Assembly (NCBI GenBank): GCA_964522265.1
Contig: CAZFVS010000053.1
Location: 1 to 7,523 of the forward strand
Direction of reading: 5' to 3'
DNA length: 7,523 nt
Source: an uncultured Gammaproteobacteria bacterium
GTDB taxonomy: Bacteria > Patescibacteriota > Microgenomatia > Daviesbacterales > UBA10151
A program made the position numbers and the translations under genes. A model generated the notes under the pieces. It saw only the letters and a list, made by a program, of their open reading frames with translations, was not told where the DNA came from and did not search any database. Of the stretch, positions 1 to 7,452 are shown one piece after another. Each line of letters opens with the position of its first letter. The first letter of the stretch is position 1.

Positions 1-58
1 ATTAATTAAGTGTGCCTAATCCTAGAAGGTTTTGTCAAATCCTGAACAATTACCCCTT

Positions 59-87
59 TTGCTTAAAGATGATGAAATTGATAAAAT
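59..87 (+). promoter_or_regulatory. sigma70-like promoter for tRNA-Arg (TTGCTT, 17-nt spacer, TAAAAT)
   Basis: TTGCTT at 59-64, exactly 17 nt of spacer (65-81), TAAAAT at 82-87. The mature tRNA 5' end follows 15 nt later at 103. Confidence 0.45.
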
Positions 88-102
88 ATATCAGTCCGCT
101 TT

Positions 103-175
103 GCCCCCATAGCTCAGTGGATAGAGCAAGACGGTTCTAACGTCGAGGTCGGGGGTTCGAATCCCTCTGGGGGTG
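103..175 (+). tRNA. tRNA-Arg, anticodon TCT
   Basis: 73-nt cloverleaf read by hand. Acceptor GCCCCCA/TGGGGGT (G1-U72 wobble); U8; D arm GCTC-AGTGGATA-GAGC with A20. Anticodon arm AGACG-GTTCTAA-CGTCG (27-43 A/G mismatch), with U33, anticodon TCT at 136-138 and A37. Variable loop AGGTC; T arm GGGGG-TTCGAAT-CCCTC; discriminator G175. CCA is not encoded (next bases are CTA). Confidence 0.85.
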
Positions 176-190
176 CTAGCACTATACTTT

Positions 191-242
191 GGGGGTTCGC
201 TCGAGCCTAAAGGGCGAGGGCATATTATCCCTCCTGGGCCGC
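191..242 (+). repeat. T-arm-like module 1: tRNA-Arg T-stem/acceptor 3' strand copy split by a 27-nt hairpin insert
   Basis: GGGGGTTCG (191-199, 9/9 identical to tRNA 151-159), then a 27-nt insert (200-226, imperfect hairpin, ends GGGCATATT), then ATCCCTCCTGGGCCGC (227-242, 12/16 ungapped vs tRNA 161-176). Confidence 0.6.
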
Positions 243-254
243 TGCTTCTCGAGA

Positions 255-305
255 GGGGTTCGTTCACCATCGAAGATGGTGGGTATACTATCCCTCTGGG
301 GGTGC
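255..305 (+). repeat. T-arm-like module 2: tRNA-Arg T-stem/acceptor 3' strand copy split by a 27-nt hairpin insert
   Basis: GGGGTTCG (255-262, 8/8 vs tRNA 152-159), then a 27-nt insert (263-289, perfect 7-bp hairpin CACCATC-gaa-GATGGTG, ends GGGTATACT), then ATCCCTCTGGGGGTGC (290-305, 16/16 vs tRNA 161-176). Confidence 0.6.
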
Positions 306-317
306 CAAACTATGGGG

Positions 318-1640
318 TTATATTTTAAACCTTCTGTCAGTTAAAAACGGATTTGGTTTTCTGAAGACATCCGGGGATGAGATCAGTGCTGCACGCTTGA
401 GGGTAAACTCACCAAATCTATCATTTATCCTGTCCAGAGCCTTGGTGATCTTTTCATTTTTATAACTTTCCATAAACAGGCTCAAATTGATCGGGTTTTC
501 CGGTTTTAAATTTGAAACTGACACTCCAATCATCCTGATTTTTTCACCATTCCATATTTTGAGAAAAGTCTGCCAGGATACTTGAAAAATCTCCAGCCCG
601 TTATTGGTATACGGAACCGTTGTCTGCATACCACCGCCTAAAAATTCACCCCGGGGGTGAAATGCGGACTGAAATGCCAAACGGTACCATAAACTGATTG
701 TTTTCCCCACCAGCTTTTTTGCCCGCAGCCTTCTTGCAATAAGCTCCGTCAACTTCAAAAGCACCTGTTTGATTTTGACAGAATCGGAGGTGTCAAGATC
801 CAGAGTATGTCTGTGCCCAATAGACTTGACCTCTCCTTTTTCATAAAAAGGTACAACAGGAGTGTTGTCAATTCCCCGGGCCATGTTGAAAAGAGTTTGT
901 CCATAACTTTTAAAAGAGGCAAGTAAATTTTCTAAAGGTATTCTTCTTAGCGTCTGAAAATTAAAAACTCCCATGTTTCCCAGCCTTTTTTTGATCCTTG
1001 AGCCGATTCCGCAAATTTCATCAAGCTCAACCGCATCTAAAACAATCTGTGCTGCCGCCTCATCAGCTATCACCACCAGTCCGTCGGGTTTGTACAAAGA
1101 TCCTGCCAGTTTTGCCATTAGCTTGTTATAAGAGATGCCGATAGAAACTGTAATCCACTCCCCGATCTCGGTTTTTATGCGAGATTTGATATTTTGGGCA
1201 GTTCGAATCAGCTCAGGTAATTCGGAACAACTCAAAATATCAGAGTTTCTGATAATCTGACTTTCTGGTATACAGAGTCTTTTTGGGTTACTCTGAGCTA
1301 TTTCCAAAAACACCTCATCTATAGAGAAAGCTTCAAGCTTGGGGGAATAATCCTTTAAAATATTTAAAAACCTTTTTGTGCACTCCAAATATTTATCGCT
1401 GTCACCTTTCACTAAAATTAAATCAGGGCATATTCTTAAAGCTTCAGGAATACTCATTCCTGTTTTTACACCCAACCTTTTTGCCTCAACAGAAGCTGCC
1501 CCCAAAACAGTTCTGTCCATTCTGTCCCCGCCTGTGACACCGATGGGCTTTTCCCGCAGCCTGGGGTTTGCCTGCTGTTCAACAGTGGCAAAGTAAGAGT
1601 TAAAATCAATGTGCAAAATGGTTCTCATATGCTCCGTCAT
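318..1640 (-). CDS. dinB: Y-family DNA polymerase IV (DinB-like translesion polymerase)
   Basis: 440-aa ORF. N-terminal ILHIDFNSYFATVEQ is the Y-family palm motif in its D-x-N form, as recalled for UmuC-type enzymes. FSIDEVFLE carries the catalytic Asp-Glu, and SIGISYNKLMAKLAGSLYKPDG is the conserved NK-LAK-AS-KP-G motif. Start is ambiguous: the ATG at 1640 lies inside the GIY-YIG repeat arm, while the ATG at 1628 (MRTILHID) is preceded by GGAG. Confidence 0.85.
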   Translation of the reverse strand: MTEHMRTILHIDFNSYFATVEQQANPRLREKPIGVTGGDRMDRTVLGAASVEAKRLGVKTGMSIPEALRICPDLILVKGDSDKYLECTKRFLNILKDYSPKLEAFSIDEVFLEIAQSNPKRLCIPESQIIRNSDILSCSELPELIRTAQNIKSRIKTEIGEWITVSIGISYNKLMAKLAGSLYKPDGLVVIADEAAAQIVLDAVELDEICGIGSRIKKRLGNMGVFNFQTLRRIPLENLLASFKSYGQTLFNMARGIDNTPVVPFYEKGEVKSIGHRHTLDLDTSDSVKIKQVLLKLTELIARRLRAKKLVGKTISLWYRLAFQSAFHPRGEFLGGGMQTTVPYTNNGLEIFQVSWQTFLKIWNGEKIRMIGVSVSNLKPENPINLSLFMESYKNEKITKALDRINDRFGEFTLKRAALISSPDVFRKPNPFLTDRRFKI

Positions 1641-1677
1641 TGCGAGATCCGATGTCCATCGGACCGAAGCAATCTCT
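1636..1677. repeat. Left inverted-repeat arm of the GIY-YIG module
   Basis: GTCATTGCGAG-ATCCGATGTCCATCGGAC-CGAAGCAATCTCT. Inner stem TCCGATG (1648-1654) pairs with CATCGGA (1657-1663), and outer ATTGC pairs with GCAAT. The arm overlaps the dinB ATG (1638-1640) and the GIY-YIG stop codon (1676-1678). Confidence 0.7.
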
Positions 1678-1966
1678 AAAAAATAATTTCTTCGTATAAA
1701 TCTTTGAATAGAGGGTTTTTATCCTTGATTAATTCAATTTTTTGGGCACGTGATCCACCCTTAAGCTGTTTTTCTCTTTTTATCGCTTCATTGATGTCCT
1801 CAAAAGCTTCATAGTAAACTAGCTTGTTGACTTTATATCTGGTTGTAAATGAGGAACCAATTCCTTCTTTGTGTTCGTAAACTCTTTTTACCAAATCGGC
1901 GGTTACTCCTGTATATAAAGTACTGCTATTGTTATTAGCCATGATGTAAATATAGGAATGTTGCAT
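1676..1966 (-). CDS. Small stand-alone GIY-YIG (URI-domain) nuclease family protein
   Basis: 96 aa. Motifs: YIYIM (GIY), LYTGVT (YIG), KRVYEHK (conserved Arg), YYEAFEDINEAIKREKQLKG (conserved Glu and REKQ-K), and the tail NPLFKDL. This pattern is typical of the short COG2827-like GIY-YIG proteins. Confidence 0.85.
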   Translation of the reverse strand: MQHSYIYIMANNNSSTLYTGVTADLVKRVYEHKEGIGSSFTTRYKVNKLVYYEAFEDINEAIKREKQLKGGSRAQKIELIKDKNPLFKDLYEEIIF

Positions 1967-2348: not shown

Positions 2349-3134
2349 TCAAGAAACAATATTTTGATTGTTTAATTTGGATATTTTGTAAGTACGTTCT
2401 GGCAGAACTGTTTTGGATAGATGCTCAAGCGACATCCAAACAATACCGCAGTTTGAATCTATCGCCTGAACATTAAAATAACCTTCTTCAGTTATATAAT
2501 ATCCGCTGATACAAATTGCATGGGTTTCAGATTTAGTGGAGTCTGGGATTGAATAAAAAAGTTCAGCCTTTACATTAAGTATTAAAGGGTGTATTTGATC
2601 TATCAGGCTTTTTATCAACCGTGCATTCATTTTTAACAATACCCTATTTATTAATTCATACGCTGGGTCATATAAACACTGTATTGTCGCTGAGGGTGGT
2701 AAATTTTTCATATTTACCCCGGTTATTTTTGTGGTATCAGCTAAAATACTTAGCTTGAGTCCATTTTTATAAGCTAAGTTGAGTATCATTGCCACATAGC
2801 CTGGATCAAGTTCAATATCTGCTACGCTGCATGCATTAACCAGGGACCACGGAGCACAGGTAACTTCATTTCCTTGTCCATACCATCTGCCTGTATACAC
2901 CCTATCTGAAAGAGTCATCTCCACAACCGTTCTTTCATCTGACATTAAAGTCCCGCCAAAAAATTTTCTTGCATCTGACACCACAGAACCTGAGCAATGA
3001 GTTAAAACAGGATTAGCTAACAAACTTGCTGTTCTTTCCGGCCAATATGGTCCCTCTGGAAGTATTGGTACAAAAAGCGGAGTTATATTAAATTTGTCTT
3101 TGTTAAGATTGTTAGTTATTTCTAGCATAGCCAT
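2349..3134 (-). CDS. Papain-fold (clan CA-like) Cys-His-Asp/Asn enzyme, paralogue 1, cytoplasmic
   Basis: WYGQGNEVTCAPWSL has the Gln-x5-Cys spacing of papain (Gln19/Cys25). Later motifs are THAICISGY (His) and AIDSNCG (Asp/Asn). No signal peptide. The likely true start is the second ATG at 3128 (MLEITNN), because the promoter/start alignment with the paralogue stays in register at that codon. Confidence 0.7.
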   Translation of the reverse strand: MAMLEITNNLNKDKFNITPLFVPILPEGPYWPERTASLLANPVLTHCSGSVVSDARKFFGGTLMSDERTVVEMTLSDRVYTGRWYGQGNEVTCAPWSLVNACSVADIELDPGYVAMILNLAYKNGLKLSILADTTKITGVNMKNLPPSATIQCLYDPAYELINRVLLKMNARLIKSLIDQIHPLILNVKAELFYSIPDSTKSETHAICISGYYITEEGYFNVQAIDSNCGIVWMSLEHLSKTVLPERTYKISKLNNQNIVS

Positions 3135-3136
3135 TA

Positions 3137-3165
3137 ATTCTACTATAGGTTTAGAAAAAATGCAA
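3137..3165 (-). promoter_or_regulatory. Promoter of paralogue 1 (minus strand: TTGCAT, 17-nt spacer, TAGAAT)
   Basis: On the minus strand, TTGCAT (3160-3165), a 17-nt spacer and TAGAAT (3137-3142). The ATG at 3128 is 8 nt downstream of the -10, which implies a leaderless or near-leaderless mRNA. The ATG at 3134 is only 2 nt from the -10. Confidence 0.5.
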
Positions 3166-3185
3166 CAATCGTGTTAAAAGGCTCA

Positions 3186-3896
3186 TTAGATACAGCGTTT
3201 ATACAACACGAAGGTATTGTTGAATCGACGGGTTTTCAACAAATGTTCAAGGGATAACCAATAAATCCCGAAATTTGAATCTATCGCTTGGATATTAAAA
3301 AATCCCTCCTGAGTTATCTGATAACCGCTCAGACAAAGTGCATGATTTTTGTCCTTATAGTTATTAGGTTTAGGGTAATATTCACAAACTTGAACAGAGG
3401 TAATGAGAGGTAGACCCAAATCAAGGAAAAACCTGGCGAATAAACCAAAAGCTAGGTTTTGTTTGAAAATCCTGTTTAAACCTTTGGGCCGGTCTAAATA
3501 TACTTTTTGTGACATTATCTCAGAACCATTGACAGAATCCTGCAAACTGCTCAAATGAAATCCTATTTCTGAAGGATTTATAAACCCAGCAGCGCGGTTT
3601 ATTAAATTTGCGATGTAGACCGGGTCAGGTTCTACTTCCAAAACTGTGCAGGCATTTACCAGAGACCATGGTGCACAGGTAGGTTCCCCTTTTTGTCCAT
3701 ACCACCTACCTACATATTCTCTTCTACTAGGCTTCAGATTACATACCATCCTGTTTTCTGCGAGGGTTGTCTCTGTTAGGAAGCTTACCTCACAAGGTGT
3801 ATAATTTAAAACATCATTTGTCAGTTCCGGGTGAGCCAGTAACAGGGCAACAGTATTCGGGGTATAACCTAGGTCAATGATGTGATTTTCAACCAT
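3186..3896 (-). CDS. Papain-fold (clan CA-like) Cys-His-Asp/Asn enzyme, paralogue 2, cytoplasmic
   Basis: WYGQKGEPTCAPWSL, NHALCLSGY and AIDSNFG match paralogue 1. Identity is 26/40 in the Cys block and 28/38 in the His/Asp block, and much lower elsewhere. No signal peptide. Confidence 0.7.
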   Translation of the reverse strand: MVENHIIDLGYTPNTVALLLAHPELTNDVLNYTPCEVSFLTETTLAENRMVCNLKPSRREYVGRWYGQKGEPTCAPWSLVNACTVLEVEPDPVYIANLINRAAGFINPSEIGFHLSSLQDSVNGSEIMSQKVYLDRPKGLNRIFKQNLAFGLFARFFLDLGLPLITSVQVCEYYPKPNNYKDKNHALCLSGYQITQEGFFNIQAIDSNFGIYWLSLEHLLKTRRFNNTFVLYKRCI

Positions 3897-3904
3897 ACCC
3901 GTTA

Positions 3905-3933
3905 ATTCTACTATAGGTTTAGAAAAAATTCAA
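3905..3933 (-). promoter_or_regulatory. Promoter of paralogue 2 (minus strand: TTGAAT, 17-nt spacer, TAGAAT)
   Basis: On the minus strand, TTGAAT (3928-3933), a 17-nt spacer and TAGAAT (3905-3910), then 8 nt to the ATG at 3896. The block 3903-3950 is 44/48 identical to 3135-3182. Confidence 0.5.
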
Positions 3934-3942
3934 CAATCATGT

Positions 3943-3948
3943 TAGAAT
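3943..3948 (+). promoter_or_regulatory. Candidate -10 element (TAGAAT) for the divergent glycoside hydrolase gene
   Basis: TAGAAT lies 6 nt upstream of the ATG at 3955. No convincing -35 and no Shine-Dalgarno sequence. Confidence 0.3.
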
Positions 3949-3954
3949 GCAAAA

Positions 3955-7413: not shown

Positions 7414-7452
7414 TGTCCCGCCAAAATTGAAATTTAGGCGGGCAGGCGATCT
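7414..7452 (+). repeat. 39-nt structured repeat, copy B (stem CCCGCC/GGCGGG with a 14-nt A/T loop)
   Basis: TGTCCCGCCAAAATTGAAATTTAGGCGGGCAGGCGATCT, 36/39 identical to 2026-2064 in the same orientation. Lies 45 nt after the stop of the HD gene. Confidence 0.75.

Follow-up and report, generated by a model that had tools for sequence, protein, structure and literature searches.

Integrative elements that target tRNA genes classically cross over in the T loop, carry a replacement for the 3' end of the gene and leave the displaced end behind as attR, a direct repeat. Such elements commonly target tRNA-Arg(UCU), and examples of tRNA targeting include P4-type integrases and mycobacteriophage Ms6, which uses the T loop of a tRNA-Ala. 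The T loop as a sublocation of tRNA-targeting integration was reportedly treated by Williams in 2002. Here we describe an array of two modules, A and B, directly downstream of a tRNA-Arg(TCT) gene on a 7,523-nucleotide (nt) contig, CAZFVS010000053.1 of assembly GCA_964522265.1, which we call the window. The window comes from a genome of Candidatus Daviesbacteria (Microgenomates, Candidate Phyla Radiation, CPR), and the closest relatives of the 440-amino-acid (aa) DinB encoded beside the array are named Daviesbacteria. From their sequence, the modules may be stacked attR-like junctions left by serial insertion or replacement at T-loop position 58/59, a reading that we consider about as probable as all others together (roughly 0.5). 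It is supported by the allele identity of the tRNA remnants, a permuted module order in a relative (L001), empty sites in other relatives, and a cargo-bearing version in a further locus, L019.

A comparable arrangement is found at ssrA, the transfer-messenger RNA (tmRNA) gene, of Dehalococcoides. There, tandem islands leave 20-bp repeats of the 3' end of the gene that start midway through the T loop, and each repeat is preceded by a conserved, element-derived 15-bp motif that does not align with the gene (PMC3146451). The serine recombinase DsiB makes the junctions, its gene overlaps attL, the islands measure 10-30 kb and carry an integration module, and repeat number varies between strains, with tandem accretion (PMC3146451). 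Like these repeats, the array consists of copies of a 3' end downstream of a live gene, each behind a conserved motif that appears to be element-derived. Unlike them, its "islands" are only 12-14 nt long (1.76 kb in L019) and no linked recombinase was found. A further difference is that the arm of the array repeats the T-stem 5' strand and TTCG at a distance of exactly 27 nt from the junction, and that the remnants belong to different tRNA alleles. The array departs from classical tRNA elements as well: no integrase, cargo or attP was found with it, the remnant nearest to the tRNA is mismatched, and the units are cyclically permuted. Remnants of tRNA 3' ends are a known signature of integrative elements; what is unusual here is that the units are reduced to 63-66 nt, that a foreign arm of constant length mimics the 5' half of a T arm, and that the remnants preserve other alleles of the same tRNA.

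Integrons offer a second comparison. Their arrays begin at attI and continue as cassettes bounded by attC sites, insertion is serial and proximal, and each junction site combines parts of one cassette and the next. The recombination sites have structure, with ends that are conserved and a hairpin-like middle that varies, and the array resembles integrons in these traits. By inspection, however, it lacks IntI, the R/L box consensus (GTTRRRY) and cassette open reading frames (ORFs), and its target is the T loop of a tRNA. Functional tRNA 3' trailers also exist, such as the small RNA (sRNA) sponge 3'ETS-leuZ (an external transcribed spacer) of Escherichia coli, and T-loop motifs tolerate insertions after G57 (between positions 57 and 58), as at the insertion point of the array. 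Likewise placed directly 3' of a tRNA, the array is presumably in the same transcript. Unlike functional trailers, it has a copy that lies outside a trailer (L019), and its pairing is not conserved.

Anatomy of the array

The pattern GGGGTTCG-N27-ATCCCTC occurs twice in the window (192-233 and 255-296) and in none of 200 dinucleotide-preserving shuffles, which bears out the claim of the first-pass annotation that two modules with 27-nt inserts stand behind the tRNA-Arg gene. Module A contains the T-stem 5' strand plus TTCG, insert A (CTCGAGCCTAAAGGGCGAGGGCATATT) and then ATCCCTC CTGGGCC G C, while in module B the 27-nt insert B (TTCACCATCGAAGATGGTGGGTATACT) is followed by ATCCCTC TGGGGGT G CCA. 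The two inserts are identical at 13 of 27 positions, not 14 as first counted. The 16-nt block ATCCCTCTGGGGGTGC that ends the live tRNA (161-176) recurs at 290-305 with the 16/16 identity initially reported, and at 227-242 with 12/16.

Both blocks are genuine tRNA 3' ends. The block in module B runs on as G-CCA (304-307) and is therefore a complete 3' end, that of the window tRNA itself. The block in module A (ATCCCTCCTGGGCCGC, 227-242) matches the 3' end of the live tRNA-Arg of L001 at 16/16 positions and is not a decayed copy of the window tRNA. We refer to the window allele as type 1 and to the L001 allele as type 2. The live type 1 tRNA has the acceptor GCCCCCA / TGGGGGT (G1.U72) and the T arm GGGGG-TTCGAAT-CCCTC, is followed by CTA instead of CCA, and is identical at 74/74 positions to the tRNA of another Daviesbacteria locus, L017.

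Read from T-loop position 59 onwards, the array is made of alternating units of 66 and 63 nt (U_A and U_B) with spacers of 12-14 nt, and the first unit completes the live tRNA. U_A follows the formula ATCCCTC-TGGGGGT-G-CCA/CTA, spacer 1, GGGGGTTCG, insert A, and U_B the formula ATCCCTC-CTGGGCC-G-C, spacer 2, GGGGTTCG, insert B. The order in the window is tRNA1, U_A, U_B, and then a further type 1 3' end.

The modules are not tRNA genes, as the first-pass annotation had also concluded. ARAGORN and cmscan with Rfam find only 103-176, the modules begin at the T-stem 5' strand, and no matching acceptor 5' strand lies nearby: GGCCCAG is absent from the + strand of the window, and GCCCCCA occurs only at 103, in the tRNA, and at 1498, inside dinB. 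As in attachment-site remnants, the blocks at 227-242 and 290-307 begin at position 59 and run through the discriminator, in module B together with CCA. An archaeal-type intron with a bulge-helix-bulge motif was not recognised on inspection; the borders of the 27-nt inserts are not joined by a 4-bp helix, and there is no tRNA 5' half.

Features of the array and its surroundings in the window
Feature	Position	Strand	Description
Module A, attR-like junction	191..242	+	GGGGGTTCG 191-199, insert A 200-226, type 2 tRNA 3' end 227-242
Module B, attR-like junction	254..307	+	(A)GGGGTTCG 254-262, insert B 263-289, type 1 tRNA 3' end 290-307
Unit U_A, 66 nt	161..226	+	Type 1 tRNA 3' end from T-loop position 59 (161-176), spacer 177-190, GGGGGTTCG 191-199, insert A 200-226
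Unit U_B, 63 nt	227..289	+	Type 2 tRNA 3' end 227-242, spacer 243-254, GGGGTTCG 255-262, insert B 263-289
Live tRNA-Arg(TCT), type 1 allele	103..176	+	ARAGORN 103-176; Rfam RF00005 103-175, 59.9 bits
Possible degenerate third-unit start (AACTAT GGGGTTA)	308..320	+	Cut by the dinB stop codon; weak likeness, by eye only
Promoter-like block	57..90	+	TTGCTT 59-64, 17-nt spacer, TAAAAT 82-87; columns invariant in the window, L017 and L001
dinB (DNA polymerase IV), 440 aa	318..1640	-	Pfam IMS, IMS_C, IMS_HHH_1; homologs named Candidatus Daviesbacteria DNA polymerase IV

Relatives of the array and wider searches

We traced eight further Daviesbacteria tRNA-Arg(TCT) loci through homologs of dinB and of the 196-aa gene beside the L001 tRNA. 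The nearest relative with dinB is a groundwater metagenome-assembled genome (MAG), GCA_016186955.1 (L001/L005). DinB of the two genomes is 78% identical in amino acids over aligned codons, the dinB nucleotides are 75% identical and the third codon positions 58%, so neutral DNA should be near saturation. The live tRNA-Arg(TCT) of L001 has the acceptor GGCCCAG/CTGGGCC and also differs from the window tRNA in its anticodon stem, while the promoter-like block in front of it is homologous.

The order of the modules is reversed in L001, where tRNA2 is followed by U_B, U_A and a third type of 3' end (GTCCCTC CGAAGCC GC). The grammar is nevertheless constant between the window and L001: a type 1 end leads to spacer 1, GGGGGTTCG and insert A, and a type 2 end to spacer 2, GGGGTTCG and insert B. 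In a MAFFT alignment, L001 equals the window layout plus one 63-nt unit inserted in the T loop. Inserts A and B are each 27/27 identical between the two genomes. U_A differs at two positions, one in the CTA/CCA triplet directly after the tRNA and one in the spacer, and the U_B directly after the live L001 tRNA differs from that of the window at five, all in the spacer. The seven mismatches (six in spacers, one in the triplet) all spare the inserts, the 16-nt tRNA blocks and the GGGGGTTCG motif. Upstream, neither L001 nor L005 was found to have a tRNA 5' fragment.

A Logan contig, L002, differs from L001 by one single-nucleotide polymorphism (SNP) in 2413 nt. The insert and 3' block of module B are identical in both, and the block equals the 3' end of the live window tRNA plus CCA. 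The SNP (L002 2259) is at position 6 of insert A, which is paired in the register shared by A and B, and changes CTCGAG to CTCGAA. It could be due to chance (54/2413) or to a methylation-related hotspot at an XhoI-type palindrome.

The first-pass annotation had proposed a covariance-model search with the two modules and a comparison of empty with occupied sites among relatives. A model built from A and B found a third module in L019 (26.3 bits, E 2.5e-4), 1.76 kb downstream of tRNA-Arg and behind two orphan ORFs. It reads GGGGATTCG, GCGTCCGACGCTGGAAGAGGGTATATT (exactly 27 nt) and ATCCCTC TGGAGGT G. Neither orphan ORF matches anything in Pfam, PHROGs, NCBIfam or PDB sequences, and PADLOC gives only a weak hit (E 0.028). 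The three insert types are pairwise identical at 12-14 of 27 positions; common to them are the 27-nt length and the junction-proximal sequence (G/A)(A/T)GGG-Y-ATA-Y-T, the L019 insert ending in GGGTATATT. L019 also carries TAAAAAT twice (3290-3300 and 1541-1550), just after tRNA-Arg (TAATTAAAAATAAC) and just before the GGGGATTCG of the module (GCTAAAAATC). If the sequence between these copies were deleted, the remaining spacer would be 12 nt long, similar to those of the cargo-less units in the window.

Empty sites are found at six other Daviesbacteria tRNA-Arg(TCT) loci, which have no module (L009, L012/13, L014/15, L016, L018). At L017, the tRNA and a 24-nt leader are identical to those of the window, and GGGGGGTTCA stands 11 nt after the tRNA; a different hairpin, a promoter and the next gene follow, with no tRNA remnant. 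The tRNA-Arg of L018 (2251-2324) differs from that of L001 (6299-6374) at one base in the D, anticodon and T arms, while its acceptor is GCGCCCA/TGGGCGC against GGCCCAG/CTGGGCC. It lies in the opposite orientation, between a Zn-ribbon gene and a 189/196-aa gene. Compared in this way, the tRNA-Arg acceptor stems look mosaic across Daviesbacteria. We dropped the mosaic T arm as proof of 3'-end replacement, since TGGGGGT (G1.U72) is present in L016 too and the T stems of all lineages differ. A kinship of the 196-aa neighbours of the tRNAs in L001 and L003 was rejected: the proteins are unrelated.

Exact-pattern scans of 596 Gb of species-representative genomes and of Joint Genome Institute (JGI) metagenomes returned only the L001 genome and chance matches. 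The patterns required GGTTCG or GGGGTTCG and would miss the L019 variant (GGGGATTCG), so the module family is wider than these scans suggest. Three matches (L004, L007 and L008) were discarded as coding sequence. A fourth, L006 (41-100), was discarded as an ordinary tRNA terminator of a Eubacteriales MAG. It reads GGGAGGG-CATATTAT-CCCTCCC with T6 behind it, and its loop and stem core also occur in the 3' part of insert A together with the T-stem strand. For a free attP, exact-pattern scans of IMG/VR gave either nothing or one chance match inside an ORF, a weak negative given the few CPR elements held there, and BLASTN against phages and plasmids gave no relevant match in collections that likewise hold few CPR elements. 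With REP/RAYT (repetitive extragenic palindromes and their associated transposases) or IS200/IS605 elements in mind, no further copies of the hairpins were found in the window or the fetched loci at up to seven mismatches. A Y1_Tnp gene adjoins tRNA-Arg in L009, which is a locus without modules.

Two other tRNA genes in these loci bear on the junction reading, and Daviesbacteria do possess elements like those at Dehalococcoides ssrA. In L014 (1573-5148), a helix-turn-helix (HTH) gene, Phage_rep_O and a 551-aa large serine recombinase (Resolvase/Recombinase) adjoin tRNA-His, and the 3' end of the recombinase gene overlaps the 3' end of tRNA-His on the opposite strand. This layout equals that of dsiB and attL in the Dehalococcoides ssrA islands. 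No tRNA-His 3'-end repeat bounding the recombinase element was found within the fetched 5 kb. The tRNA-Pro(TGG) gene (L014 14975-15180, minus strand; L015 7925-8125) has a copy of its 3' end 115 nt downstream that starts at T-loop position 58. The copy reads ATTCCCTCGTCCCCGAC and then (T/A)AATTCA, and is preceded by GTTCA and 22 nt with a CTGC-GAA-GCAG hairpin. By its sequence, tRNA-Pro adds a second case of a tRNA with a module-like remnant in this phylum.

Proposed serial insertion and its alternatives

If the modules are stacked attR-like junctions, the first part of each junction would be the conserved end of the incoming DNA, namely the T-stem 5' strand copy plus TTCG and a 27-nt arm ending in GGGYATAYT. 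The second part would be the displaced tRNA 3' end, cut at 58/59 and running through the acceptor strand, the discriminator and, in type 1 copies, CCA. Every incoming segment would have supplied a tRNA 3' end of its own, or an entire tRNA, with a trailer of 12-14 nt, and because of this the gene would remain intact, the old end would be pushed downstream and the newest unit would lie nearest to the tRNA. The window would then record at least two events or one composite, with unit A carrying a type 1 end and unit B a type 2 end. We infer that the joints are the work of a site-specific recombinase of the serine or tyrosine type, acting in trans, whose attP-side half-site would be the 27-nt arm. 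Spacing and junction-proximal sequence are kept while pairing is not, which is expected for a protein-recognised DNA half-site and not for an RNA helix.

Several findings weigh against this model. Where cargo would be expected, the units of the window and of L001 have only 12-14 nt, as opposed to 1.76 kb in L019. At all three loci the remnant closest to the tRNA fails to pair with the acceptor 5' strand of the live gene. As it stands, the textbook model, where an element contributes no more than a matching 3' end, therefore does not hold; the choices are replacement of whole tRNA alleles, joint movement of composite units, or loss of intermediates. No gene for an integrase or recombinase lies in the 7.5-kb window, in the roughly 9 kb of L001 or L005, or in L019, and neither a free attP nor a mobile copy was found in the viral, phage and plasmid collections, which contain few CPR elements. 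The window and L001 agree at 54/54 insert positions despite near-saturated silent sites, which points to constraint or recent transfer and not to dead scars. Finally, G.U pairs make the hairpins better on the tRNA-sense strand, as RNA would show. Stacked remnants of tRNA-targeting elements with the hairpin in their attP had been among the first suggestions for this locus, and it is this suggestion that comparison with relatives favours: the remnants have proved to be genuine 3' ends of two tRNA-Arg alleles, with permuted order, empty sites and a cargo-bearing counterpart, but a linked integrase was not found.

Should recombination have produced the array, the locus would preserve in compact form the traces of past gene flow at an essential tRNA of a CPR lineage. 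The mobile elements of CPR bacteria are poorly known, and GGGGRTTCG-N27-RTCCCTC provides a sequence handle for finding the recombinase and its elements. A more specific version, which we regard as decidedly improbable, is that U_A and U_B jointly make up a mini-element of 129 nt with two att sites and no cargo or, more generally, a mobile "tRNA 3'-end cassette". On one circle it would carry two attP-like sites (A27 joined to a type 2 end and B27 joined to a type 1 end). Opened at one site, the circle would enter type 1 hosts and give the order A, B of the window; opened at the other, it would enter type 2 hosts and give the order B, A of L001. A cyclic permutation in which each array starts with the host-matching end is what one circular element with two units and two att sites would give. 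Such an element would be a recombinase-dependent equivalent of a miniature inverted-repeat transposable element (MITE), swapping the acceptor ends of an essential tRNA between lineages, and might explain the mosaic tRNA-Arg(UCU) acceptor stems in Daviesbacteria.

Alternatively, whole tRNA alleles could have been replaced without a dedicated recombinase, which we consider unlikely though plausible. DNA of a related lineage, taken up by natural transformation, would recombine homologously upstream and join illegitimately on the right at the shared ATCCCTC, fusing the incoming 3' flank (spacer, GGGGGTTCG and 27 nt) to the resident 3' end. The joins that survive would be those out of register in which the incoming tRNA stays complete. 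Whole-tRNA replacement fits the nearest remnant, which never matches the live acceptor 5' strand at any of the three loci, and homology of the promoter-like block in the window, L017 and L001 is consistent with upstream recombination. It is further favoured by L017, where GGGGGGTTCA 11 nt after tRNA1 exists as a flank without a remnant, by the mosaic tRNA bodies and acceptor stems (L018 combines the L001 body with another acceptor), and by the failure to find an integrase. However, at least three joints (A with type 2, A with type 3 and B with type 1), plus the L019 joint, fall at exactly one nucleotide, and joins at the longer shared GGGGGTTCG would also be expected but none is seen. Allele replacement also leaves the origin of the first arrangement of GGGGGTTCG, 27 nt and ATCCCTC unaccounted for, and does not account for the 27-nt length and GGGYATAYT end kept in three diverged variants.

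Somewhat less probable is that the modules are functional structured RNA, co-transcribed as a tRNA 3' trailer of T-arm-like stems with an internal hairpin. They might signal processing, act as decoys for a protein or persist as a stable small RNA, with acceptor-like tails that are functional or incidental, and would represent a new class of tRNA-trailer element. The first-pass annotation had seen hairpins in the same register in both inserts, three pairs that differ on both sides, and in this covariation a sign of selection on a fold. The shared register holds in the minimum-free-energy RNA folds, with pairs 1-21 to 9-13, tandem G.A/A.G in insert A and CACCATC-GAA-GATGGTG in insert B. Of the two, only insert B clearly beats shuffles (-9.9 kcal/mol, z -3.05; insert A -7.6 kcal/mol, z -1.5). 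Folded between the two strands of its T stem, each module gives a stem that encloses the hairpin (z about -2), and three pairs are indeed altered on both sides between A and B. The sense-strand preference of the G.U pairs, the exact 27-nt length in three variants, and the identity of the inserts between genomes whose spacers differ and whose silent sites are near saturation also favour an RNA.

Selection on the fold, however, does not follow from these data. The covariation comes from two independent sequence types, and the third insert, which keeps the length and the GGGYATAYT end, forms 4 of 9 pairs in the A/B register, about the chance level, and has its own small hairpin 5 nt further 5'. 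All three inserts can form a helix G(A/U)GGG/CCCUC with a loop of 8 nt, but it is invariant and therefore uninformative. Adding the acceptor-like 3' tails removes any advantage of the folds over shuffles (z +0.28 and -0.47). The modules are confined to a narrow clade: the six empty Daviesbacteria loci lack them, and the exact-pattern scans were negative, though these miss the L019 type. The L019 module is 1.76 kb and two ORFs away from its tRNA, the order of modules is permuted, the tails match foreign alleles, and the only SNP in 2.4 kb between L001 and L002 hits a paired position of insert A. Rfam has no match at E <= 10 in 177-317. A termination signal between the tRNA and dinB, also proposed at first, is not borne out, as no terminator-like site (a GC-rich hairpin with a U tract) is present in 177-317 on either strand.

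A purely local origin would involve tandem duplication or unequal crossing-over of the segment from T arm to 3' end, followed by divergence and gene conversion. The periodic array (66 + 63 nt) and the short direct repeats GGGGGTTCG and ATCCCTC, which could mediate slippage, are compatible with it. Yet unequal exchange would yield A-A arrays and not the strict A-B alternation, the 27-nt inserts have no source in the tRNA, a remnant in the window equals another allele, which is the live one in a different genome, and the L019 unit contains foreign ORFs; we consider this origin very unlikely. An assembly artefact or chance resemblance is barely conceivable: all sequences are metagenome assemblies, but the architecture recurs in three or four independent ones (the window, GCA_016186955.1, the Logan contig, and L019, which comes from a different run), the repeats that they share, of 9 and 16 nt, would not suffice for assembly-graph loops, and none of 200 shuffles reproduced the pattern.

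Surroundings of the array

The gene dinB is convergent with the array, lies outside the element and marks its distal boundary, its stop codon occupying 318-320 on the minus strand. The short stretch that this stop codon cuts weakly resembles the spacer-plus-GGGGGTTC found behind all other type 1 3' ends (window 177-198, L001 and L017). On the other side, the invariant block upstream of the tRNA is a putative promoter. A simple promoter scan did not flag it, because its first hexamer matches at only 3/6 positions.

Four of the six frames are open across the whole array (window 91-344, both strands), and 66, 63 and 27 are multiples of three. The translations of the four open frames across the modules, concatenated, had no match in a database of 5.8 billion protein sequences. 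We dropped coding potential as a coincidence, considering that the inserts show no variation of the synonymous type and that the ORFs overlap the tRNA.

Beyond dinB, a free-standing 96-aa GIY-YIG ORF (1676-1966, minus strand) lies within two nested inverted repeats, 1665-1682 / 1971-1988 (18 nt, 94% complementary) and 1635-1655 / 1991-2011 (21 nt, 81% complementary). Together they look like a small mobile or invertible cassette. A 39-nt direct repeat (TGTCCCGYCAAAATTGAAATTTAGGCGGG...), 92% identical between its copies at 2026-2064 and 7414-7452, which lie 5.4 kb apart, contains a CCCGYC/GGCGGG hairpin, and one copy is just beside the GIY-YIG cassette. Two tandem ORFs on the minus strand (2349-3134 and 3186-3896) encode paralogs of 261 and 236 aa that are 39% identical and have no match in Pfam or PADLOC. 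They share the motif GRWYGQ...TCAPWSLVNAC, and one homolog (56% identical) is found in L001. The regions upstream of the two ORFs are likewise duplicated (3119-3182 / 3887-3950; 64 nt, 88% identical).

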